Shown here: positions 13,458-58,454 of the stretch, piece after piece
Numbering within the stretch: position 1 is the stretch's first letter
How the letters are laid out: each line of letters begins with the position of its first letter
Source of the DNA: a virus
Lineage: Duplodnaviria > Heunggongvirae > Uroviricota > Caudoviricetes
Virus record (IMG/VR): IMGVR_UViG_3300021138_000004
DNA: 64,000 nt
Strand: one strand, 5' to 3'
Notes under the pieces: model-generated
Told to the model about the DNA's origin: nothing
Database searches by the model: none
The model's input: only the letters and a program-made list of their open reading frames with translations
Made by a program: the position numbers and the translations under genes

Positions 13458-15611
13458 TTATTTTCCTTTCGCAGCATCCACAAGCCGGATGTATTCAGCG
13501 ACAGCAGTCGCTTCGGCATAGTGATTGATCTGCGACAGTAGCGGATACCGATTGACCGAGCTGCGAAGCGCGGCAGTTTCGACATCAACTTTGACAGTCA
13601 CATCCTTCTGAGTGATCTTGTCACCATATGCAGTGATCAGCGAGCGCAGAGCATGATGATCGAACTTGATCTTGTCAGCAGCACGGATAGCTTCGATCGA
13701 AGTCTTATACGGGCTGTCTGCGGCAATCAACTTCAGCACATCGTCGGTGTAGCGATAACGGTCACCGTTGTCAACCATCGATGCAGCCATCTTCGAAATA
13801 GTTGCTGCATCAATGCCGTTGATCGTGTCAACGACCACAGTTTCGAAGTTAACCCAATTAGCCATATTCGCAATCGCATCGCGAGCGTCCTTGCGAAGTC
13901 CGTAGACCTTAATACCCTCGGCGAACAGGCCTGCCGAAACTGCCTTGCGAACCAACTCACTGACTTCGATCTGGCCTTCAAGCTCGGCGGTCAGTGCCTT
14001 GATGGGCACATAGTAATGAGTCGCAGTCTTGTCAAAGCTGGCAATGGGCTTGTCTTCGCGCCAGACCAAGTCTGCATCACGCGACCGATAGGCATAGCTG
14101 CCGGCGTTGCGCTTCTGCAGGACGAACGCATTGGACAGCACAGGAGCCGCAGCAGGACCACGCACGGCCTTCTCCGACGGCGTGAGCGCGCTGACCATGA
14201 TCTGCTTGGGCGGATTGTGCAGCGCCTTGATCAAGGCTGCGGTGTTCATGGGCACCTTCTTGTCAATGGGCTGAGCAAGCCAAACAATATGCTCACCATA
14301 GAGCGCCTTGAAGTGCCGCTTGGCACGAATCAGCGGATTGCTCTGACCGTCGTTGATCACAAGATTGAAGTGGCTGGCCACAGGAATCTGCCAAAAACTG
14401 ACCGAACCTTTGCTGACATGATCGTATTCGGTATCAACGCGGATGGTCTTGACGACATCACTGTAGCTAGCGGACCTGAAGGCCGAGAAGCTGATGTTCC
14501 ATTTGACAAGATCAGCAGCATTGATCCGCAAACGATTGACGTGCGGGCGACCGTAGTAGCCATTGGAAATCAAATCGTTTGGATTGTTGTTGAGATATTG
14601 CGTGGCAGCAGCCTGCGTCAGCTTGCTGGCGCCGAACTTCTCAAGCTGGAGAGCAAAATCCCATTCGTTGGTATACTGCTTCAATTCTTCGGCAATATAC
14701 GATTCAAGGTGATCGGCAACAGCCTGCAGCTTGGCCTTGATTGCAGCAATGGTCTCCGGAATGTAGCTGAGACCTTCGCGTGATGCCTGGATGTCAAGCT
14801 CACCGATGTCAAAGTGCAGCTCGAGGCCGCACTCGAGCACTTGTGCAAGATCACCGAGGTTAGCCACCGCGTTGGGCACCTGCAACGGATAACCAATGTT
14901 ACCCATCACTGCGGTGCTGTAGTGGCTGCGACCGAGCTCATGCACGCCGGGCATGATGTCCTTGCGAGCATAGTTGACAGTCTCGGGCTCAAACCCGTCA
15001 ACGCCGATCACGTTGGGCTTGGTAGCGAAATACTTGAACACTTCGCGAGCTTCTTGGTGGAACTTGCGGAAGTCGTAGCTGTCATTGACACCAAAACGGA
15101 CTTCAACACCGTTCGGATCAGTAGTCTCTTCTTCCATCATCAGTGCGATCGACGGAACACCGTGTTCGTTGATGAACGCAGTATATACGCCGCGCCGGCC
15201 GTCCTTGACTGCGGTAACAGTGAAGTTATCGGTATAGGAAAACGCAGCCTTGGAACCAAGACCGAGGCCGCCGATAACGTCGTTCGACTCAGACTTGGTC
15301 GACTCGAAGTAGGTGGTGTAAATCTGCACCACGCCTTCATGGCTCAAACCGATGCCGTAGTCGCGAACAGCGAACCAAGGCTCCAAGGTGTTCGGAAGAT
15401 GCACATCGAACGGGCAATCAGCGCGGCCAGCCATGATGTGCGAATCCCAAGCATTGCAGGAATACTCGCGGATGATCGCCTTGATCTTGTTGGCATACAA
15501 GCCGCTGGAAAGAATCGAAAATGCCTTTGCGCTATTGCGAATGCGGAACTCACCAGTTTCGCCGACATTGCTGAGAACAGGCAAATTCTCAGCAGCACTC
15601 TTGATGATCAT
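13458..15611 (-). CDS. rIIA: rIIA protein (GHKL-type ATPase fold)
   Basis: EYSCNAWDS (N box), VRDYGIGL (G1), GGLGLGSKAAF (G2); about 717 aa; immediately upstream of rIIB as in T-even phages; start at MIIKSAAENL with AAGGA RBS. Confidence 0.85.
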   Translation of the reverse strand: MIIKSAAENLPVLSNVGETGEFRIRNSAKAFSILSSGLYANKIKAIIREYSCNAWDSHIMAGRADCPFDVHLPNTLEPWFAVRDYGIGLSHEGVVQIYTTYFESTKSESNDVIGGLGLGSKAAFSYTDNFTVTAVKDGRRGVYTAFINEHGVPSIALMMEEETTDPNGVEVRFGVNDSYDFRKFHQEAREVFKYFATKPNVIGVDGFEPETVNYARKDIMPGVHELGRSHYSTAVMGNIGYPLQVPNAVANLGDLAQVLECGLELHFDIGELDIQASREGLSYIPETIAAIKAKLQAVADHLESYIAEELKQYTNEWDFALQLEKFGASKLTQAAATQYLNNNPNDLISNGYYGRPHVNRLRINAADLVKWNISFSAFRSASYSDVVKTIRVDTEYDHVSKGSVSFWQIPVASHFNLVINDGQSNPLIRAKRHFKALYGEHIVWLAQPIDKKVPMNTAALIKALHNPPKQIMVSALTPSEKAVRGPAAAPVLSNAFVLQKRNAGSYAYRSRDADLVWREDKPIASFDKTATHYYVPIKALTAELEGQIEVSELVRKAVSAGLFAEGIKVYGLRKDARDAIANMANWVNFETVVVDTINGIDAATISKMAASMVDNGDRYRYTDDVLKLIAADSPYKTSIEAIRAADKIKFDHHALRSLITAYGDKITQKDVTVKVDVETAALRSSVNRYPLLSQINHYAEATAVAEYIRLVDAAKGK

Positions 15612-15679
15612 TGTGTAGTCCTTCTGTTGCTGTCTACCTCTCTGTTTTAGCAGAAAAGTAGACAGCGTCAAGTGGTTTT

Positions 15680-17200: not shown

Positions 17201-17339
17201 AAACTTCTCCTTATTGCTGTCTATGGATGTGTTATAGCAAGATCTAGCTAGTATGTCAAGCGGTAATGATAAATAAAAGTGCAAACCGCGATACCGCAAA
17301 TATCCGTTTGCTCTAACAGTTTAAGAGGAACTATCAGCG

Positions 17340-17993
17340 ATGTATTTACACAACAAATATTCTAAATGGTATAATTCGATTATCGAAAGAGCGCGTTCTC
17401 GTTCAATTGAGGGTTATACTGAATCACACCATATTATTCCTAAATGTATAGGCGGCACTAACAAGAAAGAAAATCTAGTGCGTCTTACCTATCGTGAACA
17501 TCGACTATGCCATTTATTGCTACCATATATGGTTACCTCTGAATACAAAGGACTGATGTGGAGGGCTGCAAAAGGTGTTCTAATGTATAATGGGCCAAAT
17601 CATGAACGGGTTGAAAGTAGAAGCCGATTAGCTGAGAAAGCTAGGATCGAAGCTACTTCGTCTCGCAAAGGTATTCCTCGCAGTCCGGAAACTATCGCTA
17701 AAATAAAAGCTACCAAAGCAGCGCGTCCGATGTCCGATGAAAATCGCGAACTATCTCGACAAAAACGAATTCGAGCAAACCAATCTCGAAAAGGAATGCC
17801 ACATAGTGCTGAACATAATCGAAAAGTTTCGGAATCACGAAACGGACAACAGTCACCAAATAAAGGAAAATCGATGAGCTTCGAGCAGCGCCAAAAAATA
17901 AGCGAAGCTCATAAGGGAAAAATAAGGAGCGTCGAACATTGTCAAAATATCAGCAAAGCAAAGACGACCGAGCTTAAGAATCGATCTACCTAA
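17340..17993 (+). CDS. HNH homing endonuclease with NUMOD3-type repeats
   Basis: ESHHIIPKCIGGTNKKENLVRLTYREHRLCHLL; repeated SPETIAKIKATK / SAEHNRKVSESR units. Confidence 0.85.
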   Translation: MYLHNKYSKWYNSIIERARSRSIEGYTESHHIIPKCIGGTNKKENLVRLTYREHRLCHLLLPYMVTSEYKGLMWRAAKGVLMYNGPNHERVESRSRLAEKARIEATSSRKGIPRSPETIAKIKATKAARPMSDENRELSRQKRIRANQSRKGMPHSAEHNRKVSESRNGQQSPNKGKSMSFEQRQKISEAHKGKIRSVEHCQNISKAKTTELKNRST

Positions 17994-20249: not shown

Positions 20250-20326
20250 TGGTGGACCCTCTGGGACTCGAACCCAGGACAACCGCATTAAAAGTGCGAT
20301 GCTCTAACCTACTGAGCTAAGGGTCC
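20250..20326 (-). tRNA. tRNA-Lys (anticodon UUU), CCA encoded
   Basis: hand-folded cloverleaf: acceptor GGACCCT/AGGGTCC, D arm GCTC/GAGC, anticodon stem TCGCA/TGCGG with loop CTTTTAA, T arm CTGGG-TTCGAGT-CCCAG. Confidence 0.85.
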
Positions 20327-23719: not shown

Positions 23720-23761
23720 CTGAATATTTGAGGTTTGCGCTGGGTTTGTATAAATAATAAT

Positions 23762-24469
23762 ATGATACCTGGATATGCTTATTTGATTGAAAACACTGTT
23801 ACTGGACAGTATTATTATGGATCTCGGACTGCTAATGTTAGGCATAATCGATTGCCTGTAGATGACCTGTGGAAATGTTATTTCACTTCATCGCGCGATG
23901 TTAAACGAATAATCAAGGAATTTGGAAATGAATCGTTTGTTGTCAAAGTGGTATTTGAGAGCACCGATTTAGATGAAGTGTATTGGGTAGAACAGTCACT
24001 GATTAAACAATATATTGAAGATCCCCAGTGCATTAACAAAAAATATCAAGATAAAGATTCGGGACACGAGATTTTCAGCACCGCCGGTAAAATTTCATGG
24101 AATAAAGGATTACCTTCTTTGAAAAAAGGTATAACCCGATCTCCGGAAATTAAGGCAAAGATAAGTGAAGCTAGAAAAGGTAAAGGTCTAGGGATTGCAC
24201 CTTCGAATAAAGGAATCCCTATGTCTCCTGAAAGGTATGATCTGCATATGGCTGCAATTTCTAAACGAAGGTCTTATGCGGGCGAAAACAATCACTTCTT
24301 TGGAAAAACTCATTCACCCGAAATCAAAGCCCTCATTGCAGCAAACACTAGCAAAGCACAAAAGGGCAAGCCTAAAACTAAAAAGGCTTGCCCTCATTGT
24401 GAAAAATTATATGCACCTCACCTTATGTCACGACATCGGTGTGTTATGCCGCCCGACGTAGAAGCGTAG
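23762..24469 (+). CDS. GIY-YIG (Seg-like) homing endonuclease
   Basis: MIPGYAYLIENTVTGQYYYGSR...DLW..YFTSS shared with 28173 and 46744 genes; C-terminal repeated SPEIKAKISEARKGK units. Confidence 0.75.
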   Translation: MIPGYAYLIENTVTGQYYYGSRTANVRHNRLPVDDLWKCYFTSSRDVKRIIKEFGNESFVVKVVFESTDLDEVYWVEQSLIKQYIEDPQCINKKYQDKDSGHEIFSTAGKISWNKGLPSLKKGITRSPEIKAKISEARKGKGLGIAPSNKGIPMSPERYDLHMAAISKRRSYAGENNHFFGKTHSPEIKALIAANTSKAQKGKPKTKKACPHCEKLYAPHLMSRHRCVMPPDVEA

Positions 24470-25549: not shown

Positions 25550-25636
25550 TTGGTGGGCGCGGTCGGACTCGAACCGACACGGGGGAACCCCGGGAGATTT
25601 TAAGTCTCCTGCGTATGACCAGTTTCGCCACGCGCC
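25550..25636 (-). tRNA. tRNA-Leu (anticodon UAA), type II long variable arm, CCA encoded
   Basis: hand-folded: acceptor GGGCGCG/CGCGCCC, anticodon stem GGAGA/TCTCC with loop CTTAAAA, variable arm GGGG-TTC-CCCC, T arm GTCGG-TTCGAGT-CCGAC. Confidence 0.85.
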
Positions 25637-26220
25637 CTTAATTTTTTCGCTCTTACATAGTTTCCGCCTTTTGGCGTAAGTCCTACTTTCTGTAATGCTT
25701 GACGAATATTAGCTGATTCTGTCAACGCTGTCAAGAGTTTTTCGTCATCGATTTTTACCTTTCCTGTGTTAATGTTCCTACCCCGCCAAGTTGGCGTTAA
25801 GGCGTGACAGTTACAACACAACAGTTTCAGGTTCGATTTGATATTATTCCTGTTATCTCCGTCAGTATGTTCGAGTTCTAACGGAATAGGTTGATGATTC
25901 CACTCGGTTAGATTGCACTCTTCACACTGATGTCCGCGTTCTTGAATAAGGAATTGTTTATGATTCCCGGTTCCGTTGTATTCAAACACCGTTTTTGGAA
26001 AAACATCTTTGTTCCATGCCATTTTCTTTTTTGAATCATCTGGCAGATCTCTATAAGCGTCACTACCGGATTTTCTTTTCCCAGTTTCGTAGACTAGTTT
26101 AGTAGAATCCGAATTGATTTTCTTGAGAACTGAACAACCCGAAGGCCGTTTAGAACAACAATTTTTTCCATTCTTTAATTGAAACTTAGCTTCTTTACCA
26201 CATCCATAATCGCAATACAT
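25600..26220 (-). CDS. HNH endonuclease (zinc-finger type)
   Basis: CCNCHALTPTWRGRN HNH core with N-terminal Cys cluster; AGGAG RBS; 3' end overlaps the tRNA-Leu 5' end. Confidence 0.75.
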   Translation of the reverse strand: MYCDYGCGKEAKFQLKNGKNCCSKRPSGCSVLKKINSDSTKLVYETGKRKSGSDAYRDLPDDSKKKMAWNKDVFPKTVFEYNGTGNHKQFLIQERGHQCEECNLTEWNHQPIPLELEHTDGDNRNNIKSNLKLLCCNCHALTPTWRGRNINTGKVKIDDEKLLTALTESANIRQALQKVGLTPKGGNYVRAKKLRARGETGHTQET

Positions 26221-28172: not shown

Positions 28173-28808
28173 ATGTCTATTTATTACACTTACCATCTAT
28201 ATCACAAGCTAACTGACAAAAATTATTATGGAGTCAGGTATGCAAAAGGATGTCACCCTTCTGATCTATGGACAATTTATTTCTCATCTTCTAAAGAAGT
28301 GCGTAAACTTATCGAAGAACACGGTAGAGATTCATTCGTAGCACAAGTTCGAAAAACTTTTCCTACTAAAGATGCAGCCATAGAATGGGAAACCCGGTTT
28401 CTGCGAAAAATTAACGCTGCTAATAATGACCGATGGTTAAACCGATCAAACGGTGATAAAAATTTCAGAGGGACAGGATTGTCTAGTGATAAACAACGTC
28501 GAGCGTCTAGTAAAGCAAATAAAGGAAAAATCGTTAGCGAAGAGACTCGTCAAAAAATACGAGATGCCCGAAAACGGCAGGCTCCGCCTAGTGAAGAAAC
28601 TCGTCGTAAAATCAGTGAGTCGAACAAAAATCGAGTGCATAGCGAAGAGACTCGCCGAAAACTAAGTGACGCTCAAAAAGGTCGCGTTTTCAGTAAAGAG
28701 TCTCGTGCTAAAATGAGTGAAGCAAGAAGAAACATTACTGAAGAAACGCGACTTAAATTGAGTTTGGCAAAAAAAGGCCAAATTCCTTGGAATAAAGGTA
28801 AAAAATGA
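28173..28808 (+). CDS. GIY-YIG (Seg-like) homing endonuclease with NUMOD3 repeats
   Basis: MSIYYTYHLYHKLTDKNYYGVRYA; repeated SEETRQKIRDARK units; close paralog of 46744..47424. Confidence 0.8.
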   Translation: MSIYYTYHLYHKLTDKNYYGVRYAKGCHPSDLWTIYFSSSKEVRKLIEEHGRDSFVAQVRKTFPTKDAAIEWETRFLRKINAANNDRWLNRSNGDKNFRGTGLSSDKQRRASSKANKGKIVSEETRQKIRDARKRQAPPSEETRRKISESNKNRVHSEETRRKLSDAQKGRVFSKESRAKMSEARRNITEETRLKLSLAKKGQIPWNKGKK

Positions 28809-40523: not shown

Positions 40524-41615
40524 TCACCATTGAGTTTTCGATTCATCGGGGAAATGTGATATCCAATCATATTTAACACCTAACTGTTTGATCACATATT
40601 CGTATGATCTTTTGTCTGCTAATAGCGTAAAAAATCTTCCGCTACCTGAACTTGCATTCTTAGCAAGACGTTTTAGATTATCTAAGTTATGACCTGCAAC
40701 ATCACTGTCTGTAACTAGGATGACATTGTACTCTTTACTCAATACCGAAGTAGCAGCAGACGTAACTTCGTCGGGCAGTTCATTATACCCGTTACTGCCG
40801 ATGCTAAAGAATTGAGATAGCGGATATGTGCCAGTAGATGGTACTGGTTTTTCTGCACCTTCGAAATTAGTAGTTGGCCAAAATCTATTATTATCGAGAT
40901 CTAGAGCAAAATATCTAGGCTCCCCGCCTGTTAGCACAACACTTACAATACCAGCAACTCCATCATTTAGTGATTCCAAAAGATTCTTCACATTGGACAT
41001 AGTAGTTTTAATTTTGCTGATCATGCTTCCTGAGCTATCTAGGATGAATGCTAATTTAACTGCGTTTTCTGTGGCTTTTTCACCAGGTTTTAATGCGCCA
41101 GCGCCTAGTTCGGCTGCTGCTGCAACACTGGCGCCTGCTCTTTTATTGATCTTAGACCATGATGGGTCAAAGTTCTTTTCAGTTTCTGCAAATTGTTCCA
41201 GGATAGATTCCCAACTGTAGGTAGGTTTAGGAATTTTACCGATATCTCTGAGTCCCATATCTGGTGTATCTTTAGTGCTAGAAGTGTTTATCTCTCCGTC
41301 ACCGTTATCTACCCCGCCCTCTCGATCGGATCCTTGACCCTTTCTCTTGCTAAGAATGTCGTCAATATCTTTTTTTGTTCTAGTTACAGTATCGCGGTCT
41401 TTATCTCTGCTATCAGATTTTTCGTTCCCCGGCTTACCTGGCTGTGGTTGTCCCTGCCCCGGCTTACCTGGCTGTGGTTGTCCCTGCCCCGGCTTACCTG
41501 GCTGTGGTTGTCCCTGCCCCGGCTGTGGTTGATTTTTTTGTCCTTGATCGCCTTGCTGGTTAGCATCTTGCTTTTTACGAAAGGTACCTTTGTTCCAAGT
41601 TTCAGTATTGGTCAT
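40524..41615 (-). CDS. von Willebrand factor A (vWA) domain protein with N-terminal PGQGQPQ repeats
   Basis: MIDAS motif LAFILDSSGSM (DxSxS); 3 perfect 30-bp repeats encoding PGKPGQGQPQ. Confidence 0.7.
   Translation of the reverse strand: MTNTETWNKGTFRKKQDANQQGDQGQKNQPQPGQGQPQPGKPGQGQPQPGKPGQGQPQPGKPGNEKSDSRDKDRDTVTRTKKDIDDILSKRKGQGSDREGGVDNGDGEINTSSTKDTPDMGLRDIGKIPKPTYSWESILEQFAETEKNFDPSWSKINKRAGASVAAAAELGAGALKPGEKATENAVKLAFILDSSGSMISKIKTTMSNVKNLLESLNDGVAGIVSVVLTGGEPRYFALDLDNNRFWPTTNFEGAEKPVPSTGTYPLSQFFSIGSNGYNELPDEVTSAATSVLSKEYNVILVTDSDVAGHNLDNLKRLAKNASSGSGRFFTLLADKRSYEYVIKQLGVKYDWISHFPDESKTQW
41427..41531. repeat. perfect tandem repeat 3.5 x 30 bp (ccccggcttacctggctgtggttgtccctg) inside the vWA gene
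   Basis: seen directly. Confidence 0.8.
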
Positions 41616-42876
41616 TGTCGTCCTCTAAGTCGTCTAAATCGGAATTATCAAGGTCGTTGTCTGTAGGTGGAATTTGCTTATTAACTACTGGCGGCGCACG
41701 GTTAATTGCAGGATGCGGCGCTGCTGTTGGAGCATCGATCTGCACCTCTACCGAGCCGTCGTTGTTAATTTTAGTAACAATTCCTTCTTTGCCGGCACTG
41801 TTCACAACTCGATCTCCTACTGCAATCTCTTCGCCGTTTCCGTCGTTTTGATCATCATTTTGATCGTTTTGATCATCGTTTTGATCGTTTTGATCATCAT
41901 TTTGGTCGTTCCAGTCATTATCGTCATCGTCGATTATAGGATCATTATGTACATCTGCTTGTGTTACTTGTTCTAACCAATCAAGTAATTGTGTATCATT
42001 AATTTTTCTAAGCTCTTCGCTGACGGTTTTAATAAGTTTATCATAAGACGGAGTTTCTGGTCTATCAAAATTGAGATCGTCGCTGAATAATCCCATAGGT
42101 AATTGTTCATATCCTGATTTAACCAGCGAATAATTAATTCTAAAATCTTGTGCCCAATTATGTGCCATGTGATCGTATTTGTCAAATCTACGACTGGTAC
42201 TGAAGTCACCTTCAATGAAATGCATAAGTTCATGCAGGATTAAGAATTCGATGTATGCATAACCATTAGGAAATGGTCCACCGTTGGCCTCGTATTTTTC
42301 ACCTTTTGGTTTTAGATCTACGACTTTTGCGTAGTACAGAAGTTGCTGCATAAAATTACGATTGAATATAAATGTTGCATTGGGTGTAGCAGCAGCCGTA
42401 GGAATCTCACCATATTCGTGTCCGGGATTAGGATCATTTGATGAAACTAACAGAGTTTTCGTCCCACTGTATCGCTTGAGAGAACCGGGTTCTCTCAATA
42501 ATAGCATGGCTTGGGGATGCTCTCTTTCTATTTCCTTGATTAACATTTTGAAATCGATATCTTCAAATTCGACATCACTTAAATCTAGTGAACCCATCTT
42601 TGCAGATTCTTGTATATGGTTAAATGCTGCATTTTCTGCGATATTTTTTACAAGAGTATCATATAATTTAGGACTAGTTTTCTGTAAAGCTGCAAATTCT
42701 TGAGAATATTTTTCCATACTTTTTATGATTATCTGTGCAGGGACTTTGGTCCTTCTAGACAGATCAGCGACAACACTTTGGATATGTGGATCATTCATTG
42801 CAGATGACTTAAAAGGGACTTCTCCCTTTTCTGATCGAGTTCTAACGAATGCTTCTAAAAGTTCTTTAATTCTCAT
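41602..42876 (-). CDS. zincin-like metallopeptidase motif protein (HExxH) with acidic DNDQ repeat tail
   Basis: ILHELMHFIEGDF; C-terminal DQNDDQNDQNDDQNDQNDD encoded by 21-bp repeats about 41844-41910. Confidence 0.6.
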   Translation of the reverse strand: MRIKELLEAFVRTRSEKGEVPFKSSAMNDPHIQSVVADLSRRTKVPAQIIIKSMEKYSQEFAALQKTSPKLYDTLVKNIAENAAFNHIQESAKMGSLDLSDVEFEDIDFKMLIKEIEREHPQAMLLLREPGSLKRYSGTKTLLVSSNDPNPGHEYGEIPTAAATPNATFIFNRNFMQQLLYYAKVVDLKPKGEKYEANGGPFPNGYAYIEFLILHELMHFIEGDFSTSRRFDKYDHMAHNWAQDFRINYSLVKSGYEQLPMGLFSDDLNFDRPETPSYDKLIKTVSEELRKINDTQLLDWLEQVTQADVHNDPIIDDDDNDWNDQNDDQNDQNDDQNDQNDDQNDGNGEEIAVGDRVVNSAGKEGIVTKINNDGSVEVQIDAPTAAPHPAINRAPPVVNKQIPPTDNDLDNSDLDDLEDDNDQY

Positions 42877-42889
42877 CGATCAGTTCCAA

Positions 42890-45748
42890 TTACGAAAGTA
42901 TGTCCATCAACTTGATATATTGATTAGACATTTCTTTGGCTATTTTATCAAGATTTATTTCGGCGTTATCTGAATCCCATTCGTTGGCAAACGCTTCCAT
43001 AGCCCTATCGAGTATAATACTTATAGTTCGGCTCATTGGGAGATAGTTATCTCTTTCAAGTCTGGCTTGTTCGATGGCATCGTGCATAGTTTGGATTATC
43101 CATTCAAACGATCCGACGTTATTACTAAAAAAGAAGTCTTTGCATTCGGGATAATCGATTCGTCGACCGCCTTCGTCGAGGAAGGGTTTGACTTGGTTGT
43201 TAACAAATGCGTAGAAATCTTCATCGAACTCTGCTCTAGTAGTGTTTGACATGTAATCGTAGAAATCTTCATTTCTAGCAAGCGGCTTGGCACTTGAATT
43301 GCTAGATAGTTCCTTGATGTATTTGTTAATGATTTCACCGAATCCGCCAACTGGTTGAGCAATGTTTTCGACAAATTTAAAGCTGACTTGATCACGAATG
43401 ATTTTTGCTAGTAATTGCCAGAAATTCTCACTGGCTTCCATGCTCTTGGTATATTGATACCAATCGAGATGCTGCCTAAACATGTCTAGTGCAATATCGG
43501 TGATTTCTTCGACGATCTCAGTCTGTTCAAGATGCTCGCCTTGATCTAGTCTAGATCGCAATTGATCCATAGTCATGTCAATTTGCACAACTAAGTCTTC
43601 AAATAGATTATCATAGTCTCTTGGATTGAAGTACAGCTCAGCATCTCCATCTCCAACAGTAATGCGGAATTGTTTTTGTAGAGCATTGGACTTTTTCTTT
43701 TTAGTATCTTGCTCTTCTAACCCCATTGAATCACCGAACGATTTGATAACATTGATCGAAGTATCAACGGCATCGTCACTAAACTCCTCGCGGAGGTTTT
43801 GTGCCCGCATTTCTAGGAAGTTTATAGTTGCATTCCAATCTGGTTCGGCATGGATAACATCAACAGCATCTTTGAAGTGCTGTGTCATTTGAATAACGCC
43901 TGCGTCTTCTGGATTCATTGCACCTAAACACAGTATATCATCGGGCAATCGAAATTGATGATTAAATTCTTTTTCTAGAATTAATCGACGAAACGCATTA
44001 AACACTGTAACAGTCTTAACTCGATTGATTTCGTCGAAGAACAGCACAAACCGATAACCAGGTGTTCCATCCGGGCGAGGCGGCTTGTTCCACCATTCAT
44101 CGAATACTTCCCTAGCAGTTCTTCCGCCTAGCTCTCCTTGTGCTTCTAGACGTTGCAATCGATCACCGTAATCTCTAGTAGCTTGCTGCATATCCGCTAA
44201 TATGCGAGATAAAAGTTCTGGCTTTGAAAATTGTGTTTCTCTACCGTGTGGTCCCATTTTGCTTACCGGTAAACCTGTAACAGAGTCTGCACTAAATTCT
44301 GGACAGTCTAATGACAAGAATCTCATATTATATGGTTCTTGTTCAAACATTTTACCAATTTGGGTTTTACCAATACCTGGCTCACCTGAGATGACTGGAA
44401 CATATTTCTTATCCTTGCCAATTTTATCTTGTAACATGATTTCATTGACAACTAGTTCACGCCAATTAGTATTAGCAACTCGTCTAACTTTGCTGTAGTT
44501 GATTCCGGATTTAGCAGACAGTGTTTTGATAATGTTCTTTAAAAGATCACGAACATCAGTTAACTCTTCTGGGACGTCTTTTTCTTTATTTTCAAGCTGC
44601 ATCATTAATACAGTTTCTAAATTGCTAACAGTTTTTTCATCTTCAAAGGGGTAGATAGCATTGATCTTGGCAATAATGTCTGACCATCTGCGCGGACTTA
44701 CACGCATTTCATCTGCGCCCCTGTCTTCCCCACGCTGTCGTTGCAAAACTTCGTCTTTTAGGTTAATTACGAACGCATCGAGTACGTCTTTCTTTAATGG
44801 TTGTCCAGAACGATTAAGGGTAGAAATAACATTGTTTAACCAAATATTTACAGTAGGCGCCTGATACTTGATTAAATTAAAGGTAGCGTGTTTAGAAGCT
44901 GCTCTATCAATGCCCTTGTCATACAAGTTAGTTGCATAGGTAGTGTAAGTTCCTTGAGGTAATTCTTGGTTACCTAATCTACCGTTTAAGATTGCACGCA
45001 AACTGTTTCGAATGGCATTAGATGTCTTTCTTGAAAATTCGTCTAAGAATAATATCCTTTGATATCTTGATCTAATTAAATCGATCTTACCGGGAAAGTG
45101 TTTCTCAATAGCTTGAAAATAATCCTGGGTAGACTGAGGTAAGCTAGCAATGTGAGCAGCAAATTGATTGTCTGGAACATGCGTTAATTTATCTAATTCG
45201 GAAATAAGGTGAGAGCGAGCTAGTTCGACTTCGTATTGTTTTCCTTGATCGTCAACTCCGTCACCGTCAGTATCTACCAATTCGATTTTTTCACTACTGT
45301 AAGTTTTTTGACCATTAGGAGTTTCGACAACAAATGGAATATCAATGATATGTTCTTCTAGTGTATGGGGAACTTCCATAATAACAACTGGAAGGCCTAG
45401 AATATTCGTAATTTCTTTAACAAAACTGGTTTTACTGATACCAGTGTCGCCACCCCATAGGATTCTTTTAGTGGTGTTCGGCTTGAGCATGTTCCCTGCG
45501 ATGTATTGGAACATTCTTAACTTGGGACCATAGTCGATATTAAATGGTGCTTTAGTAACTGGTGATACGTCAGCTGTATTTGGTCTCGCTTTAGGTTTAG
45601 CTGGTTGCTGAGGAGCATTACCCTGCGGTTCAACGGGCTGTGTAGCAGTTGATTGTTGATCGGAATAAGTGTTCGGATCTAGGTCTGCGTCATCTTGTTC
45701 AAAGATTCTTCGTTTAGGTGATTTCTTAATAGACACTTTTATTCCCAA
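42890..45748 (-). CDS. large double AAA+ ATPase, MoxR-like (952 aa)
   Basis: two modules: GGDTGISKTS + LFLDEFSR and GEPGIGKTQ + LFFDEINR (the DEINR-type Walker B/sensor typical of the MoxR/RavA family). Confidence 0.7.
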   Translation of the reverse strand: MGIKVSIKKSPKRRIFEQDDADLDPNTYSDQQSTATQPVEPQGNAPQQPAKPKARPNTADVSPVTKAPFNIDYGPKLRMFQYIAGNMLKPNTTKRILWGGDTGISKTSFVKEITNILGLPVVIMEVPHTLEEHIIDIPFVVETPNGQKTYSSEKIELVDTDGDGVDDQGKQYEVELARSHLISELDKLTHVPDNQFAAHIASLPQSTQDYFQAIEKHFPGKIDLIRSRYQRILFLDEFSRKTSNAIRNSLRAILNGRLGNQELPQGTYTTYATNLYDKGIDRAASKHATFNLIKYQAPTVNIWLNNVISTLNRSGQPLKKDVLDAFVINLKDEVLQRQRGEDRGADEMRVSPRRWSDIIAKINAIYPFEDEKTVSNLETVLMMQLENKEKDVPEELTDVRDLLKNIIKTLSAKSGINYSKVRRVANTNWRELVVNEIMLQDKIGKDKKYVPVISGEPGIGKTQIGKMFEQEPYNMRFLSLDCPEFSADSVTGLPVSKMGPHGRETQFSKPELLSRILADMQQATRDYGDRLQRLEAQGELGGRTAREVFDEWWNKPPRPDGTPGYRFVLFFDEINRVKTVTVFNAFRRLILEKEFNHQFRLPDDILCLGAMNPEDAGVIQMTQHFKDAVDVIHAEPDWNATINFLEMRAQNLREEFSDDAVDTSINVIKSFGDSMGLEEQDTKKKKSNALQKQFRITVGDGDAELYFNPRDYDNLFEDLVVQIDMTMDQLRSRLDQGEHLEQTEIVEEITDIALDMFRQHLDWYQYTKSMEASENFWQLLAKIIRDQVSFKFVENIAQPVGGFGEIINKYIKELSSNSSAKPLARNEDFYDYMSNTTRAEFDEDFYAFVNNQVKPFLDEGGRRIDYPECKDFFFSNNVGSFEWIIQTMHDAIEQARLERDNYLPMSRTISIILDRAMEAFANEWDSDNAEINLDKIAKEMSNQYIKLMDILS

Positions 45749-46590: not shown

Positions 46591-46751
46591 CGGTTAAAGA
46601 ACTCAAAGAATTGCTTGACGAATTGCCTAGCGATGCTAAAGTGTTTTATGAAGGCGGCGAATACAAGTATGACTATCGCAGCGTCTACAAGGTAGAATAC
46701 AACGAACATGCAACTTTGGCCTCGACCGGCCATTCAGTTTTTATTAGGTGA
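46587..46751 (+). CDS. small protein (GTG start overlapping the upstream TGA)
   Basis: ORF track 46527..46751 trimmed; GTGA junction. Confidence 0.45.
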   Translation: MTVKELKELLDELPSDAKVFYEGGEYKYDYRSVYKVEYNEHATLASTGHSVFIR

Positions 46752-47424
46752 CCGAGTTTCTTGGTTTACCTTTTTTAGAGTTGCTGATCTTTTGTTTGAC
46801 TTCTTCTGAGTGTCTGTAACCTGTTTTTAGTAGCGATTCACTTATTTTACGTTTTTGTTCTTCACTCATCGGTCCCCTGACTCTACCTTTTGCAGCATTG
46901 CCCATTTTTTGACGAGTTTCTTCACTTAATGTTCTACCTAGGCCACGGTTTTTACTGGCTTCACACATTTTCTGACGAGTTTCTTCACTAATTGGTGGCC
47001 TCTTTCTTCTTGATTCGGACATTTTCTGTTTTGTTTCCTCACTATGCGATTTACCGAGTCTAGACTTACTCATTTTACGGCGAGTTTCGTCAGTGTGGAT
47101 TATGGCACCTCGAAATTTTTTATCACCATTTGATCGGTTTAACCATCGATTATTAGTAGCCGCTTTGATTTTTTGTAAAAAATTTGATTCCCATTCTATG
47201 GCTGCTTCTTTGGTAGTAAATGTTTTTCGAACCCTGGCAACAAAAGTTTCTTTCCCGAATTCTTCGATAAGATTCTGTACTAATTTAGAAGATGAAAAAT
47301 AGGTGGTCCATAGATCCGATGGGTCACATCCGTCGGCATATCTGACACCATAGTAATGTTTGTCAGTCGGTGCATGATATAGGTGGTACGTGAAATAAAT
47401 AGACATGGCTGATAGTTCCTTCAT
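46744..47424 (-). CDS. GIY-YIG (Seg-like) homing endonuclease, close paralog of 28173..28808
   Basis: MSIYFTYHLYHAPTDKHYYGVRYADGC...; repeated SEETKQKMSESRR units. Confidence 0.8.
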   Translation of the reverse strand: MKELSAMSIYFTYHLYHAPTDKHYYGVRYADGCDPSDLWTTYFSSSKLVQNLIEEFGKETFVARVRKTFTTKEAAIEWESNFLQKIKAATNNRWLNRSNGDKKFRGAIIHTDETRRKMSKSRLGKSHSEETKQKMSESRRKRPPISEETRQKMCEASKNRGLGRTLSEETRQKMGNAAKGRVRGPMSEEQKRKISESLLKTGYRHSEEVKQKISNSKKGKPRNSVT

Positions 47425-47550
47425 AACTGTTAGAGTGAGTAGGAATTGGCGTTCCGTGACTCACACTTATTTATCTTCATAGTTGACACTCGCGGTGTTA
47501 TATGTTATTGTGTTGAATACAATTTAAACTACACTAATGGAGAAATCAAA

Positions 47551-53581: not shown

Positions 53582-53607
53582 AGAGATATAGACAGTTGAG
53601 GAACCTT

Positions 53608-54915
53608 ATGCACAACATTATTAAAGAACTCGAAGCAGACAATAGTCGTTTGGCCAAAGAAGCAATTCTCAAGCGAGAAGCAGATGCAGGTAACACTGGC
53701 TTTTTCGACGGTGTTCGAATGGCACTAGACAACTACATCACATTCGGTGTTAAGAAAGTTCCTATTCACGGCGGGCCCGATGGACAGGGTCTACCTTGGG
53801 AAGCGTTTGCTGCTCTTGCGACGTACCTTTATATGCGAGAACTAACCGGTCACGAAGCTCGTGATGCAATTGAGCTTGCAATGAGCGCAGCTACACAAGA
53901 CGAGTGGAACTACTGGTATCGTCGAATCCTTATCAAGGATCTTCGCTGCGGAGTCAGTGAAAAGACTGTTAATAAGATTCTTAAGGGATCTGAGATTCCT
54001 GAAGTTCCTGTTTTTGAATGTATGCTTGCACACGATGGTGCAAATCACGAAAAGAAGATCAAAGGTAAGAAGCTGCTTGAACCCAAGCTAGATGGCGTTC
54101 GCTGTCTTACCGTAATCAATTACGAAGCAAAAAGTGTAATCATGTACACTCGCAATGGCAAGGTACTTGAAAACTTCAGCCACATTGCTGAGGGTGTTCT
54201 TAAGAACATCGAAGATTTCGGTCGTAGCTATGTAATCGACGGCGAGGTTGTTTCGAATAGTTTTCAGGAACTCATGAAGCAGGTGCATCGCAAGGACGAT
54301 GTGCAGGCAACAGATGCACGGTTGATGGCATTTGATATTCTTCCACTCAGCGAGTTCCAAGCTGGTAAGAGCGCAATGGGTCAGCGTCGTCGTAGCAACT
54401 TCCTGCGCACCCTAAAGCCTATCCTAGACAAGTGCGGCAGCATTGATGTTATTACACAGCTTGAAGTTGATCTCGACAGTCTTGTTGGAGAACTTCAGTT
54501 TAAGCAATACAACAAGGATGCTATTGAAGCAGGATACGAAGGTATCCTTGTAAAAGATCCAAACTCAGTTTATGAATGCAAACGAAGTGTATCATGGTTA
54601 AAAATTAAACCAGTAATAACTGTTGATTTAACAGTAGTATCTCTTGAAGAAGGGACTGGTAAAAATATAGGGAAGCTAGGTGCATTGGTTTGCGAAGGAA
54701 CTCACCAAGGAAAATTTATTCGTGTCAATGTTGGGTCAGGATTAAATGATGACCAACGTGCAGAAATTTGGAATGATAAGGATGCAATTTTAGGACAGGT
54801 TGTTGAAATTAAAGCTGATTGCATTACTCAGAATCAAGATACTGATAGCGAATATAGCTTGAGATTTCCTAGATTTGAACGTTTTCGAGGTTTCTGTGCA
54901 GGAGATAAAATATAA
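53608..54915 (+). CDS. ATP-dependent DNA ligase
   Basis: adenylation motif I KLDGVR (KxDG); size and layout typical of phage ligases; ATG after GAGG RBS (track start is TTG). Confidence 0.85.
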   Translation: MHNIIKELEADNSRLAKEAILKREADAGNTGFFDGVRMALDNYITFGVKKVPIHGGPDGQGLPWEAFAALATYLYMRELTGHEARDAIELAMSAATQDEWNYWYRRILIKDLRCGVSEKTVNKILKGSEIPEVPVFECMLAHDGANHEKKIKGKKLLEPKLDGVRCLTVINYEAKSVIMYTRNGKVLENFSHIAEGVLKNIEDFGRSYVIDGEVVSNSFQELMKQVHRKDDVQATDARLMAFDILPLSEFQAGKSAMGQRRRSNFLRTLKPILDKCGSIDVITQLEVDLDSLVGELQFKQYNKDAIEAGYEGILVKDPNSVYECKRSVSWLKIKPVITVDLTVVSLEEGTGKNIGKLGALVCEGTHQGKFIRVNVGSGLNDDQRAEIWNDKDAILGQVVEIKADCITQNQDTDSEYSLRFPRFERFRGFCAGDKI

Positions 54916-54964: not shown

Positions 54965-55732
54965 ATGACTAATTTGTGTATTTATGGTTGCGGGAAAGAA
55001 GGTATTATCAAGAATAAATCAAATCCGGGTTGGCGATGTGCAGTAAGCCCGAATAGTTGCGCAGGTATTAAGGCTAAGAAGAGGCAAATTCTTATTGATA
55101 CATACGGTGTGACGAACGTAAGTCAAATTCCGGAAGTGCTGGCTAAAAAGAAAAACACATGGATAGAAAACTATGGAGTTGATAATCCTTCGAAAGCAAA
55201 AGTGATTGTTGATAAAATTAAAGATAGTTGGGAAGCTATTAACACTAAACGAAAACTAACGATGTTGAAAAAATACGGTACTGAAAGTTATAACAGCACA
55301 GATGAATTTAAAGATCGCAGAAAGAAAACATGGATGGAAAAATATGGAGTCGATAATCCTACCAAAAACGAAGAAATCCTTCATAAATCTATGTTATCTA
55401 ATGCAAAATCGGAATATCGAACAAAAACACTTACATTGCCTAGCGGTAAGATTATTAGATATCAGGGATTTGAAGACCAAGTAATAATGGATTTATTAAA
55501 TTCAGGGGTTCACGAAGATGATATCGTAACAGGACCAGGAAATGTTCCGCATATTAAATATGAGTTTGAAGGAAAGAGCTGTAGATATTATCCAGACATA
55601 TATCTTCCAAAACTTAACAAAATTATTGAAGTAAAATCTCAATATACTTGGGACAAATATAAAGAACGAAATGCAGCAAAGGTTGCTGCTACTAAGTCTG
55701 CAGGGTTTGAAGTTGAGGTTATTATTAAATGA
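54965..55732 (+). CDS. putative nuclease (possible homing endonuclease): N-terminal Cys cluster, three YGV(D/T)NP repeats, C-terminal PD-(D/E)xK-like motif
   Basis: CIYGCGKEG...CAGIK; YGVTNV / YGVDNPSK / YGVDNPTK; YYPDIYLPKLNKIIEVKS. Confidence 0.45.
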   Translation: MTNLCIYGCGKEGIIKNKSNPGWRCAVSPNSCAGIKAKKRQILIDTYGVTNVSQIPEVLAKKKNTWIENYGVDNPSKAKVIVDKIKDSWEAINTKRKLTMLKKYGTESYNSTDEFKDRRKKTWMEKYGVDNPTKNEEILHKSMLSNAKSEYRTKTLTLPSGKIIRYQGFEDQVIMDLLNSGVHEDDIVTGPGNVPHIKYEFEGKSCRYYPDIYLPKLNKIIEVKSQYTWDKYKERNAAKVAATKSAGFEVEVIIK

Positions 55733-55935
55733 TCATGATCAAATGGCTAGGTACAACATTACTTGTATCAGCAAACGTATGTCGTGCATTTAATTTTCAT
55801 ATAGCTGATATGGCCTGTACCTTAATTGGTGCAGGCCTTTGGGCGTATGCAGCATGGCGAACAAACGATAAGGCTCTGATAGCTGTTAATGCAGTGTCAG
55901 TAGCACTTATGACAATAGGATTATACAATGCATAA
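55729..55935 (+). CDS. small membrane protein (68 aa)
   Basis: ORF track; ATGA overlap. Confidence 0.55.
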   Translation: MIMIKWLGTTLLVSANVCRAFNFHIADMACTLIGAGLWAYAAWRTNDKALIAVNAVSVALMTIGLYNA

Positions 55936-56134
55936 GGAGAGTAACTTGGGAAACAAAATAACTGTTACTAGTGATAGAACGAAGACTATTAACGAACATG
56001 GTTTTGAAGACGAAACTATCGAAATTGATGCCGATTTCGATGAATCGATTTCACCAGAAACTGTTCAAGAATTGCTAAAAGCAATAGCAGACACAGCAAT
56101 CTACGAATTAGAAAACATTAAAGGAGATATTTAA
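55928..56134 (+). CDS. small acidic protein (68 aa)
   Basis: ORF track. Confidence 0.55.
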   Translation: MHKESNLGNKITVTSDRTKTINEHGFEDETIEIDADFDESISPETVQELLKAIADTAIYELENIKGDI

Positions 56135-56232
56135 CTAAGTGGAGATGAGTGTCCATTCTAAGGTAAACATAAACGTAATAATGTAAATACATGACTGATA
56201 GTTCCTTTTCAACTGTTAGAGTCGGTGGATCC
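56130..56232 (-). pseudogene. possible remnant of a Seg-like HEG 5' end
   Basis: about 35-bp near-repeat of the RBS/start region of HEG 46744..47424 (ctgatagttcctt...aactgttagagt), followed by only a 24-codon ORF. Confidence 0.3.
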
Positions 56233-56274
56233 TGCAAGATCGCGATCGACAATTTTATTTAGTAAGGAACAAAA

Positions 56275-56490
56275 TTGAAAGAAGAATTAATTGAATTAGA
56301 AGGTGTTGTGGAAGAATGTTTGCCCAACACTCTGTTTCGTGTGAAGCTAAATGAAGCACACACTATTCTTGCTATGATTAGCGGAAAAATGAGACAAAAT
56401 CGCATCCGTATATTAACGGGCGATCTAGTTAAAGTAGAAATGTCGGCCTACGATTTAACCAAGGGTAGGATCACTTACCGAAGTAAGTGA
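56275..56490 (+). CDS. infA: translation initiation factor IF-1 homologue (S1-like OB fold), TTG start
   Basis: [54 protein letters not shown] closely follows bacterial IF-1 (LPNxxFRVxLENGHxVxAHISGKMRKNYIRILxGDKVxVELTPYDLSKGRI); AAGGA RBS. Confidence 0.75.
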
Positions 56491-56495
56491 TCCGC

Positions 56496-57008
56496 TTAAC
56501 CCAAGTAAACAGCCCATTCAGGATATTTTAGGTCGATATTCATAGCTTTGCGCTTTTCGACCAATTCCCAATAACTAGGCTTATGTGGAACCTTTGCAGG
56601 CTTAATACGCTTGTCGTTGCCCTTGCGACCATTACAAGGCGAACACGCTGTTGCAGAGTTCTCAAATGTACTTTTACCGCCGTGACTGATTGGCAGCACG
56701 TGGTCTAGTGTTGCGGTCTTTTTAGTTACTGCAACACCGCAATATTGACATTTGAATTCATCTCGAAGATAAACGTTCATCTTCGAGAATCGAACATGCG
56801 CTTTCTTCTTCTGAAATTCCTTAAGCATAATAATGGAAGGAACGCGGGTTTCCCAGGTAGCAGAACGTACAATCCAGTCATTATGCCATTCTAGAACATT
56901 AACTTTGTCTAGAACTAGGTAACGAATAGCTTCCTGCCATGTGATTGCACTTAATGGCAACATGGAAACAGGGCTTCCGTCCGTGTTTAGCAATAACGTA
57001 TCGATCAC
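56496..57008 (-). CDS. HNH endonuclease
   Basis: CQYCGVAVTKKTATLDHVLPISHGGKSTFENSATACSPCNGRKGND. Confidence 0.8.
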   Translation of the reverse strand: MIDTLLLNTDGSPVSMLPLSAITWQEAIRYLVLDKVNVLEWHNDWIVRSATWETRVPSIIMLKEFQKKKAHVRFSKMNVYLRDEFKCQYCGVAVTKKTATLDHVLPISHGGKSTFENSATACSPCNGRKGNDKRIKPAKVPHKPSYWELVEKRKAMNIDLKYPEWAVYLG

Positions 57009-57044
57009 ACTTCTCCTTGATAAATATTGTTAAGGATCAATTTA

Positions 57045-57665
57045 ATGTATTTACCTAACAAATATACAACATGGTATTATGCTATAATAACACACGCACT
57101 GACTCGTGTCAATGAAAACAGATATGTAGAGAAACATCATATTATACCAATCTCATTGGGTGGTACAAATGATGATGGAAATCTGGTAAAACTTACCGCC
57201 AGAGAACATTTTATATGCCATAGATTGTTAATAAAAATGACTACCGGAATTAATAAACAAAAAATGTGCCATGCTGCATGGGCAATGGCAACTCTTAAAA
57301 ATCCGAAGCAGGAAAGGATAAAAATAACATCAAAAGTATATGAACATTTACGAAGCAATTTATCATTAACAGACGATCACAAAAGAAAAATATCAGAAGC
57401 AAGTCGAGGAATTCCTAGAGGACCGTTTTCGGAAGAACATAAAAGAAACATGCGTAAACCGAAAAGTGAAGAACATAAACGAGCACTTTCGATAGCAAGG
57501 TCTGGTAAAACTTATGGTTATAAACATTCGGAAGAAACGAAAAGAAAAATGTCGGCATCTTCAACTGGAAGATTTCAAGGATCAATGATATGTGAACATT
57601 GCGGAAAAGAAACATCTATTGGAAATCATAATCGTTGGCACGGCATGAAATGTAAGCACCGATAA
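57045..57665 (+). CDS. HNH homing endonuclease with NUMOD3-type repeats
   Basis: EKHHIIPISLGGTNDDGNLVKLTAREHFICHRLL; SEEHKRNMRKPK repeats; ATG chosen over track TTG. Confidence 0.8.
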   Translation: MYLPNKYTTWYYAIITHALTRVNENRYVEKHHIIPISLGGTNDDGNLVKLTAREHFICHRLLIKMTTGINKQKMCHAAWAMATLKNPKQERIKITSKVYEHLRSNLSLTDDHKRKISEASRGIPRGPFSEEHKRNMRKPKSEEHKRALSIARSGKTYGYKHSEETKRKMSASSTGRFQGSMICEHCGKETSIGNHNRWHGMKCKHR

Positions 57666-57925: not shown

Positions 57926-58001
57926 TTATTACTAAATACCCAAAAGGGGATATTAAAACCATGACGGTTATTCTCCTGTAATAAAAAGAGAGGTAATGAC
58001 A

Positions 58002-58454
58002 ATGGATTATAATATTGAAGTCGAAAAGACTAAGATGCAACTTTGGGTATTAAAGCTCATGGCTTTGGCTCTAGGTTCTATCATGGTAGCAACGGTGCTG
58101 GTAATGCTCATAGGTTTGTTTACTCCGAATACAGTTATTGATAACAGAGAAATTTTCAAGATCCTTGGTCCTGCATTTAGCATGGTCGTTGGTGCGTTTG
58201 TAGGTTCTTTTGCTACAATGATGGGTATGAAGACTGAACCGCTTAACCCGAATGCAAAACTACAGGCAGTCAATGACGACCCAACTCCGCCAGCTGCACC
58301 TGCTGTTGCTGCACCGACTGCGGTCGATACACCTGCTGCTCCTGCTGTTGCTGCGCCTGCTGCTGCACCTGCTGATAGCGATGACGATGACGATGACGAC
58401 GATGATGACAAGAGTGATACACCTGCTGCACCAGCAGATCACGGTCCATTCTAA
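58002..58454 (+). CDS. holin-like membrane protein (2 TM) with Pro/Ala-rich and poly-Asp tail
   Basis: TM segments LMALALGSIMVATVLVMLIGLF and FSMVVGAFVGSFATMMG; immediately upstream of the endolysin. Confidence 0.55.
   Translation: MDYNIEVEKTKMQLWVLKLMALALGSIMVATVLVMLIGLFTPNTVIDNREIFKILGPAFSMVVGAFVGSFATMMGMKTEPLNPNAKLQAVNDDPTPPAAPAVAAPTAVDTPAAPAVAAPAAAPADSDDDDDDDDDDKSDTPAAPADHGPF

Follow-up and report, generated by a model that had tools for sequence, protein, structure and literature searches.

The infA gene and its product

The 64,000-nucleotide (nt) viral DNA of IMG/VR record IMGVR_UViG_3300021138_000004, referred to below as the window, carries at 56275-56490 on the plus strand an infA gene for a phage translation initiation factor IF-1. 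The gene starts with TTG, ends with the TGA stop at 56488-56490 and encodes a product of 71 amino acids (aa) with an OB fold, which is matched by the families TIGR00008 and PF01176. On the comparisons presented below, this gene is probably a functional IF-1 ortholog and a core gene of widespread, uncultivated large lytic phages, with a TTG start that was rebuilt here by a homing endonuclease insertion.

The original prediction, which was made from the letters and open reading frames (ORFs) of the window, had described an IF-1 homolog with a TTG start. Both parts were confirmed: the 71-aa ORF is present, the IF-1 motifs quoted in that prediction were all found, the profiles were matched end to end, and TTG stands at 56275 in the ORF listing. 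Because an in-frame TAA lies at 56263-56265, TTG is the sole start that yields the full-length product.

The TIGR00008 infA equivalog model of NCBIfam was matched over positions 1-69 of 69 with 106.3 bits (cut-off 61.15), and PF01176 of Pfam over positions 1-64 of 64 with 93.7 bits (gathering score 30.2, E 5e-27). With the archaeal and eukaryotic aIF-1A/eIF-1A models, the scores of the window protein remained far under the respective cut-offs. In PDB, solved bacterial IF-1 chains were matched over residues 2-71, with E values from 1e-24 to 1e-19.

The AlphaFold2 model of the window protein, built from an alignment of 46 sequences, reached a mean predicted local distance difference test score (pLDDT) of 89.5. 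Its predicted topology follows the IF1 order b1-b2-b3-helix-b4-b5 (strands at 5-16, 20-24, 30-35, 51-57 and 63-70, helix at 37-41), that is, a single five-stranded OB barrel of about 70 residues whose strands 3 and 4 are linked by a short helix. When the model was compared with PDB by Foldseek, the best 14 matches were all bacterial IF1, including IF1 of the E. coli 30S complex (9fco_I; template modeling (TM) score 0.93, root-mean-square deviation 1.3 Å) and the Thermus 30S-IF1 crystal chain (1hr0_W; TM 0.90). The S1/OB-fold profile, on which the original prediction had staked the IF-1 assignment, was thus passed by the window protein together with the predicted fold. On profile and model evidence, the ORF at 56275-56490 is a real gene and an IF-1 ortholog, with a similarity far beyond chance.

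In comparison with bacterial IF-1 (TIGR00008/PF01176; 1AH9, 1HR0, 9FCO), the window protein has the same length, a single OB domain and the residues facing the 30S subunit, with TM scores of 0.90-0.93 and 60-76% identity to proteobacterial IF-1. The N-terminus, M-A-K-E in the relatives, is shared with bacterial IF-1 as well. E. coli IF-1 differs by having T, G, H, K and Y where the window protein has C15, A28, M34, Q41 and R43, and the window protein lacks the RGRA tail of E. coli, K71 being its last residue.

Residues that contact the ribosome have been described in a structural and nuclear magnetic resonance study of C. difficile IF1, where K39, R41, R46, R64 and R66 form the basic 30S-binding surface, R41 and R46 touch the flipped A1492/A1493, K39 touches the 530 loop, and H35, Y60, R64 and R66 face S12 (PMC10913371). 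According to earlier work cited there, C-terminal residues such as Arg70 are critical to IF1 function, and a review describes the C-terminal Arg69 (E. coli mature numbering) as essential for 30S binding (PMC4611024). The set scored here from these two sources comprised K39, R41, R46, R/K64, R66, H30, H35, Y60 and R70 in Met1 numbering (PMC10913371, PMC4611024).

Eight of these nine residues are kept in the window protein as K38, R40, R45, K63, R65, H29, Y59 and R69, the numbers running one lower because Ala2 is missing. The basic surface facing 16S rRNA helix 44, the 530 loop and S12 is thereby retained. The sole difference is M34 in place of H35; the H34D mutant of E. coli IF1 remains active with somewhat reduced affinity (PMC5499595). 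Both M34 and Q41 were also found in ordinary actinobacterial IF-1 (L120, L122, L126), and Q41 as well as R43 is known from IF-1 of ordinary bacteria. The sequence contains no feature that would speak against a functional IF-1.

Conservation of infA in the phage family

Besides infA, the window carries rIIA (13458-15671, minus strand), rIIB (11652-12599, minus strand), genes for an ATP-dependent DNA ligase and an endolysin, at least seven homing-endonuclease-type genes and two tRNAs. It belongs to a large lytic phage, and infA lies within a bona fide phage genome, not in host or prophage-flank DNA. A megablast search of the infA region against deposited phage genomes gave no match and thus no close cultured relative. 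In the deposited genomes, the best identities were 36-43% for rIIA, to T4-like and other large phages, and 35% for the ligase. Identical or near-identical IF-1 proteins are encoded on metagenome contigs of up to 143-171 kb.

The ATP-dependent DNA ligase gene (53596-54915, plus strand; PF01068, PF14743) is the upstream anchor of a block composed of ligase, infA and an HNH gene. The last of these, HNH170 (56496-57008, minus strand; PF14279, PF01844), encodes a 170-aa HNH-domain protein and is convergent with infA across a gap of 5 nt. A gene for a 68-aa small membrane protein of family DUF6552 (55729-55935, plus strand; PF20189 at 29 bits) directly precedes infA in close relatives, and this adjacency was seen in L001-L005 and L007.

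In the loci L001-L003, which have a 100% identical IF-1 body, the order is ligase, DUF6552, infA, convergent HNH gene of 169-170 aa, an 83-aa gene, a 151-aa gene and endolysin. The central block was also found in L004, L005 and L006, on contigs of 90-338 kb and with IF-1 74-79% identical. The order of ligase, the small membrane protein (where present), infA and convergent HNH170 was kept among relatives of 57-79% IF-1 identity.

At least 583 viral stretches encoding IF-1 relatives were detected in a scan of IMG/VR, and neighboring genes were counted in the best 80 of them. Ligase and/or HNH170 stood beside infA in 64 of these 80 loci, and both in 61, with identities of 51-76% for the ligase and 56-71% for HNH170. 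A ligase of 52-76% identity was present in 63 of the best 80 loci, and an HNH170 of 55-71% identity adjoined infA in 62; the position of infA between ligase and HNH170 was also conserved in six metagenome loci. The nearest cultured relatives of HNH170 come from the jumbo phages PA5oct, Atu_ph07 and Phosso (41-45%) and from Mx1, with an overall identity of 38-45%. HNH170 is a core gene of the phage family and does not behave as a mobile endonuclease.

Among 54 distinct loci, pairwise IF-1 identity correlated with the identity of HNH170 (r 0.55) and of the ligase (r 0.47), with a Mantel p of 0.001; the correlation between ligase and HNH170 (r 0.49) was as tight as that of IF-1 with either. In a neighbor-joining (NJ) tree of 211 distinct sequences, which is indicative only because it is based on 68 columns and has no bootstrap, the smallest clade with all 53 synteny-confirmed phage IF-1s excluded the sampled bacterial-genome sequences and the references. 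Further metagenome and IMG/VR sequences were also taken into this clade. The pairwise ratio of nonsynonymous to synonymous substitution rates (dN/dS) within the family had a median of 0.12 and was below 0.3 in 98% of pairs (162 pairs, dS 0.05-1.5), the synonymous sites of the family infA being near saturation overall. Together, these sequence comparisons show that the gene has been retained vertically over a long time under purifying selection in the phage family.

Acquisition of infA by mobile-element traffic, as suggested in the original prediction, was not supported. The gene is not recent mobile cargo, because its position is fixed, its divergence is correlated with that of its neighbors and only the endonuclease genes are patchy; in the NJ tree, the clade of its product is, moreover, phage-only. 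Patchy presence, variable position and a phylogeny independent of neighbors, by which cargo or moron genes are recognized, were not found for infA.

A phylogeny had also been proposed as a way to the donor lineage, and it returned the phage-only clade without naming a donor. In a scan of genome contigs for bacterial IF-1, the best match (71%) came from metagenome-assembled genomes of Gammaproteobacteria, a ranking that is biased by the use of query-specific 8-mers. The sister group of the phage clade in the NJ tree consisted of six metagenome proteins with the motif AHTSGKMRKNRIRVLAGD, which we take to be alphaproteobacterial.

In the 222-kb family relative L006, Fe-S cluster assembly genes (NifU_N and two Fe-S_biosyn, 2867-4578) lie at a distance of a few kb to infA.

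Native initiation region of infA in the family

Among distinct family loci, infA starts with GTG in 48 of 55 and with ATG in 4, and the Shine-Dalgarno (SD) sequence AAGGAG lies 11-13 nt upstream of the start in 47 of 50. In L001-L003, the start of infA reads GCATAAGGAGATATTAAACTAA GTG GCT AAA GAA, with the product beginning M-A-K-E-E-L. For 107 called genes of four related loci, the other genes of these phages showed ATG in 91% and a peak of SD spacing at 6-8 nt, and infA itself accounted for three of the six GTG starts and for three of the four SD spacings of 12 nt. Sampled bacterial infA genes had ATG in 35 of 50 cases and mostly an SD spacing of 5-10 nt. The initiation of infA is mostly at ATG in the sampled bacteria, at a probably coupled GTG in the phage family, and at a secondary TTG in the phage-encoded gene of the window.

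The long ORF upstream of infA ends between −4 and +2 nt from the GTG in 28 of 51 loci. In most of the remaining loci, the stop of the upstream ORF is found 7-19 nt before the GTG, at or beside the SD. From this geometry, the juxtaposition of stop and start together with the distant SD suggests that native infA is translationally coupled to the preceding gene, which would give it a set dosage. Autoregulation, by analogy with the AUU start of infC, was also considered for the GTG and the 11-13 nt spacer, and was dropped, except as a part of the takeover-factor reading given below, since the stop-start juxtaposition makes coupling the simpler explanation.

Rebuilt start of infA in the window

The native initiation region of infA persists in the window in an orphaned form at 56121-56142 (plus strand), where AAGGAGATATTTAACTAA GTG G is identical in 21 of 22 nt to the SD-spacer-GTG-G segment of L001, L002 and L004. 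Following the retained AAGGAGATATTTAACTAAGTGG at 56121-56142, an insert of 135 nt replaces CT, and the family sequence continues with AAA GAA from 56278 on. What follows the old GTG (56139-56141) in frame is a mere stub of 15 codons (56139-56186).

A new SD, TAAGGA (56263-56268, plus strand), stands 6 nt upstream of TTG and within the upstream region of the inserted endonuclease gene. Its spacing falls within the 5-9 nt usual for the other genes of these phages, and it is missing from the relatives L001-L003. By comparison with these relatives, the TTG start is secondary, a by-product of the endonuclease insertion and not the native start.

The 135-nt insert (56143-56277, minus strand) in codon 2 of infA is the remnant of a homing endonuclease gene, putatively of GIY-YIG type, with its ATG at the complement of 56190-56192 and its SD at the complement of GTTCCTT (56201-56207). 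In L090, which comes from another sample, the same flanks enclose an intact gene for a 223-aa endonuclease (852-1523, minus strand) instead of the 135-nt insert. Of this gene, the window remnant has retained 14 codons from the beginning and a few from the end. Since the break falls at a GTCCA repeat (56151-56155) when compared with L090, the remnant arose by internal deletion. The L090-type gene is polymorphic, being present or absent among near-identical genomes.

When inspected by eye, the 223-aa product of L090 showed an N-terminal YVY...YYVGKG GIY-YIG motif followed by R...E...N, and it matched PHROGs 15526 and 10829, both families of unknown function. None of the Pfam GIY-YIG models exceeded its threshold for this product, so the GIY-YIG assignment rests on the motif and the PHROGs. 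BLASTP of the L090 endonuclease against the 226-aa GIY-YIG/NUMOD3 gene of the window gave no significant match. With an intact L090 gene at the same spot and an HNH gene at 56496-57008 (minus strand), the location of infA between a homing endonuclease remnant and an HNH gene was correctly recognized in the original prediction.

An intron as the source of the 135-nt insert was rejected, as no Rfam intron was found and L090 reveals a deleted protein-coding gene. The Rfam search over 55400-57200 yielded no group I/II intron, and nothing at E ≤1 apart from a glutamine riboswitch model at 56772-56848 (plus strand), within the HNH170 coding region, which reached 19.9 bits (gathering score 35, E 0.33). 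This match is most likely due to chance.

About 40 nt at 56182-56222, comprising the start codon of the remnant and its upstream sequence, are 85-90% identical to 17311-17350 (reverse) and 47396-47436. By blastn, the shared stretch is confined to the 5' ends and upstream regions of the genes, the other two being endonuclease genes of different families, which hints at a shared regulatory cassette of endonuclease genes.

The TTG allele was found in at least three haplotypes, from four assemblies besides the window. The independent assemblies L087 and L088 are 100% identical to the window over 2 kb. The L089 haplotype carries the TTG allele without the HNH-NUMOD3 insertion described below, and the L090 haplotype carries it with the intact endonuclease gene.

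Three further insertions were recognized around infA. The first, of 187 bp (55934-56120, plus strand), lies between the stop of DUF6552 and the old infA ribosome-binding site, with an AAGGAGA direct repeat on either side; L087, L088 and L090 share this insertion, and L001-L003 lack it. It holds a small acidic ORF, read either from TTG (55946-56134, 62 aa) or from ATG at 55928 (68 aa), for which no Pfam or PHROG match was obtained. The second is a DUF7487 homing-endonuclease-like gene (54965-55732, plus strand; PF24308 at 172 bits, PHROG homing-endonuclease families) in the interval between ligase and DUF6552, which is missing in L001-L003. The third is an HNH-NUMOD3 homing endonuclease gene (57027-57665, plus strand; PF07460, PHROG 655 at 2e-39) that separates HNH170 from the 83-aa gene and is not found in L001-L003 or L089. 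Because of these repeated nearby insertions, the flanks of infA are considered a landing zone for endonuclease elements, with infA as a target or neighbor and not a passenger.

A second, independent insertion that touches infA was observed in L004 (338 kb), where a DUF723/HNH-type endonuclease gene (8187-8954, minus strand) overlaps the final 33 nt of infA (8001-8219).

Proposed role of the phage IF-1 and alternative explanations

Given the fold, the contact residues and the constraint, the best-supported interpretation is that the family protein would act as a functional IF-1 and bind to the host 30S subunit at its A site. During infection, phage IF-1 would sit, like IF1, in the A site of host 30S subunits, and it would add to or replace host IF1. 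In this way, 30S initiation complexes could keep forming fast on phage messages as host gene expression declines.

In the family, infA would be expressed through coupling to the upstream gene, from GTG with AAGGAG 11-13 nt back and at a set dosage. A GIY-YIG-type homing endonuclease gene would then have inserted after GTG-G in codon 2, uncoupling infA, and the upstream region of the insert would have happened to supply an in-frame TAAGGA-N6-TTG. From this TTG, a product one residue shorter, lacking Ala2, could still be made. A later deletion between two GTCCA repeats would have reduced the endonuclease gene to its remnant of 135 nt.

Several observations weigh against this interpretation. The coupled native start is severed in the window allele, and TTG lies 88 nt beyond the stop of the stub and 140 nt beyond the stop of the small ORF. 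The TTG allele is in the minority, with 9 contigs compared to 65 with GTG, and the coding sequences of the two alleles are identical, so that too little time has passed for any effect of selection or decay to become visible. In the predicted fold of the plus-strand RNA of 56195-56275 (−20.5 kcal/mol, z −2.05), the new SD is paired to GUUCCUU, and just upstream an inner hairpin of −10.7 kcal/mol is followed, on the plus strand, by the U-tract UUUUAUUU. Finally, the changes specific to the family (Q41, R/K43, and Q45 in most members, not here) could mean an altered behavior on the ribosome.

The structure responsible for this fold is an inverted repeat, GUUCCUU/AAGGAAC (56201-56270, plus strand), which encloses the inner hairpin at 56221-56250 and through which the plus-strand RNA can pair the new infA SD. 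As the predicted hairpin can cover the new ribosome-binding site, the expression strength of the TTG allele is in question. On the minus strand, the same inverted repeat can pair the SD of the endonuclease gene itself, with a weaker fold (z −0.9). A scan for sigma-70 promoters and terminators near infA gave nothing above shuffled expectation.

Taken further, these features would describe an infA that is effectively silenced in the window, a young pseudogene not yet decayed, in which hardly any protein, or none, would be made from TTG because its SD is partly occluded. Such silencing, which we regard as rather doubtful, would agree with the native SD-GTG opening just the 15-codon stub, with the pairing of the TTG's SD in the minimum-free-energy fold, with the hairpin and U-tract upstream and with the rarity of the allele. 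However, the in-frame TTG stands behind a 6-nt SD match at the spacing usual in these phages, the z-score of the fold is modest, and the ORF is intact and unchanged over three haplotypes, whether the endonuclease gene is intact or deleted and with or without the NUMOD3 insertion. The start codon itself also argues against silencing: in vitro, UUG-initiated infA mRNA was about equal to the AUG form at 20-40 °C, with GUG weaker, especially in the cold, and UUG competed about as well as AUG, whereas GUG competed poorly with AUG (PMC5499595).

In another reading, which is unlikely, IF-1 would be a dosage-controlled takeover factor of the phage family, its synthesis being tied to that of an upstream membrane protein through the near-universal GTG, the SD 11-13 nt back and the stop-start juxtaposition, with Q41, R/K43 and often Q45 shifting the choice of start sites or mRNAs on host ribosomes toward the phage. 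If this were true, the TTG allele would be a natural variant of uncoupled expression, created by a homing endonuclease and coexisting with the coupled allele in the same populations.

A selective or antagonistic action on the ribosome, by which phage IF-1 would favor phage start sites or mRNAs or block host initiation beyond simply topping up the factor, is likewise improbable; a bias toward phage mRNAs had been raised as a possibility in the original prediction. The selective reading draws on the substitutions in the helix-loop lying against the 530 loop and h44, namely Q41 for K/M, R/K43 for Y/F and mostly Q45 for R; Q41 is typical of the family (55 of 56 members), as is R or K at 43, and Q45 is found in most members. 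The window protein, however, retains R45 and every other contact residue but one, R43 and Q41 are known from ordinary bacterial IF-1, the protein has no extra domain or extension, and its sequence gives no pointer to mRNA discrimination.

Bacterial IF1 can substitute for cold-shock proteins and has antitermination activity. A phage IF-1 whose main role lay away from the ribosome, be it that of an OB-fold RNA chaperone, of a substitute for cold-shock proteins or of an antiterminator, would be in line with the OB fold common to cold-shock proteins and with the RsgA OB domain also matched in the PDB fold search (E ~1e-3). It is nevertheless improbable, as conservation in the phage family falls on the residues of the 30S interface and the similarity to IF1 far exceeds that to any other OB protein.

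That infA is a recent cargo of homing endonucleases, or that the region is host DNA or a chimeric assembly, can be practically dismissed despite three endonuclease-type insertions less than 3 kb from infA and endonuclease genes abutting it in L004 too, given the conserved ligase-HNH170 position in 64 of the best 80 IMG/VR loci and six metagenome loci, the correlated divergence and phage-only clade, the identical 2-kb stretches in independent assemblies and the phage genes on either side.

Comparison with known systems

The presence of IF-1 in this phage is no surprise, because phage-encoded IF-1 has already been published. Many huge phages carry IF1 and IF3, for which a redirection of host translation was proposed by Al-Shayeb et al. 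2020 (PMC7162821), and "translation initiation factor 1A" is listed among the 39 conserved core genes of the Jug gut phages (PMC12880540). As in these cases, the IF-1 of the window is part of a large phage genome that has further host-like functions, and the gene is of core status in the Jug phages as well. The window differs in belonging to another uncultivated family, which is defined by the ligase-infA-HNH170 block. Not all members of this family are "huge", since the contigs of close relatives measure about 140-170 kb.

IF-1 is also encoded in deposited phage genomes, among them Lak megaphages and Sinorhizobium phage Phosso, with at most 68% identity to the window protein. PHROG 30201, annotated as "unknown function", matches the window IF-1 at 1e-30. 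No experimental work on any phage IF-1 was found in the literature searches.

Phage bS21 (Chen et al. 2022, PMC9723584) is likewise a small, host-derived component of initiation in large environmental phage clades. It is thought to favor phage translation, and the paper does not mention IF1 (PMC9723584). It differs in being another protein at another ribosomal site, IF-1 being a transient factor and not a subunit component.

The 223-aa gene of L090 resembles the free-standing GIY-YIG (Seg-like) genes of T4 type in lying between or within conserved genes and in its variable presence. Hairpins that sequester the ribosome-binding site are known for T4 endonuclease genes, and the inverted repeat of the L090 gene can cover its own SD. 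Unlike Seg-like genes, which occupy intergenic spacers, the L090-type gene was inserted within the coding start of its neighbor, and its flank rebuilt the initiation region.

As a long-held core gene under strong constraint, infA points to the supply of IF-1 as a standing part of the infection strategy and not an accident of transfer. What is added here to the published cases is the core status of infA in a large, widely sampled family of uncultivated phages, the GTG start that is conserved there and probably coupled, and the start rebuilt by an endonuclease; neither type of start was encountered in the literature searched, with searches that were not aimed at them. The window presents a homing endonuclease in codon 2 of a conserved gene, with its own flank giving a start that looks workable. 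The two alleles, coupled GTG and independent TTG, occur within the same populations and could be compared for expression and fitness. The ligase-infA-HNH170 block also offers a handy metagenome marker for this phage family.

Other features of the phage genome

The intact homing-endonuclease-type genes of the window, at least seven in number, are located at 12660-13403 (minus), 17340-17993 (plus), 23735-24469 (plus), 28173-28808 (plus), 46744-47424 (minus), 54965-55732 (plus) and 57027-57665 (plus). They match PHROGs 655, 314 and 3339 as well as NUMOD3, HNH and DUF7487, and one of them separates rIIB from rIIA. Such a load of homing endonucleases per 64 kb is unusually high.

Directly upstream of the endolysin gene, at 57996-58454 (plus strand), a 152-aa protein is encoded whose N-terminal half is hydrophobic and which also contains an Ala/Pro-rich repeat and nine consecutive Asp residues. 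No family match was found for it, and it could be a lysis accessory protein. An uncharacterized three-gene module at 40524-45748 (minus strand) encodes a 952-aa AAA-type ATPase followed by proteins of 424 and 363 aa; the latter two, which have no Pfam match, both weakly match PHROG 1314 ("HNH endonuclease").

The G+C content falls from about 0.47-0.53 (1-28000) to about 0.38-0.45 (30000-64000), and the GC skew flips its sign near 28-30 kb, which may mark a boundary between replication or transcription modules. The two tRNAs, tRNA-Lys(UUU) at 20250-20326 and tRNA-Leu(UAA) at 25551-25637, both on the minus strand, read A-ending codons, which fits the A+T-richer part of the genome.

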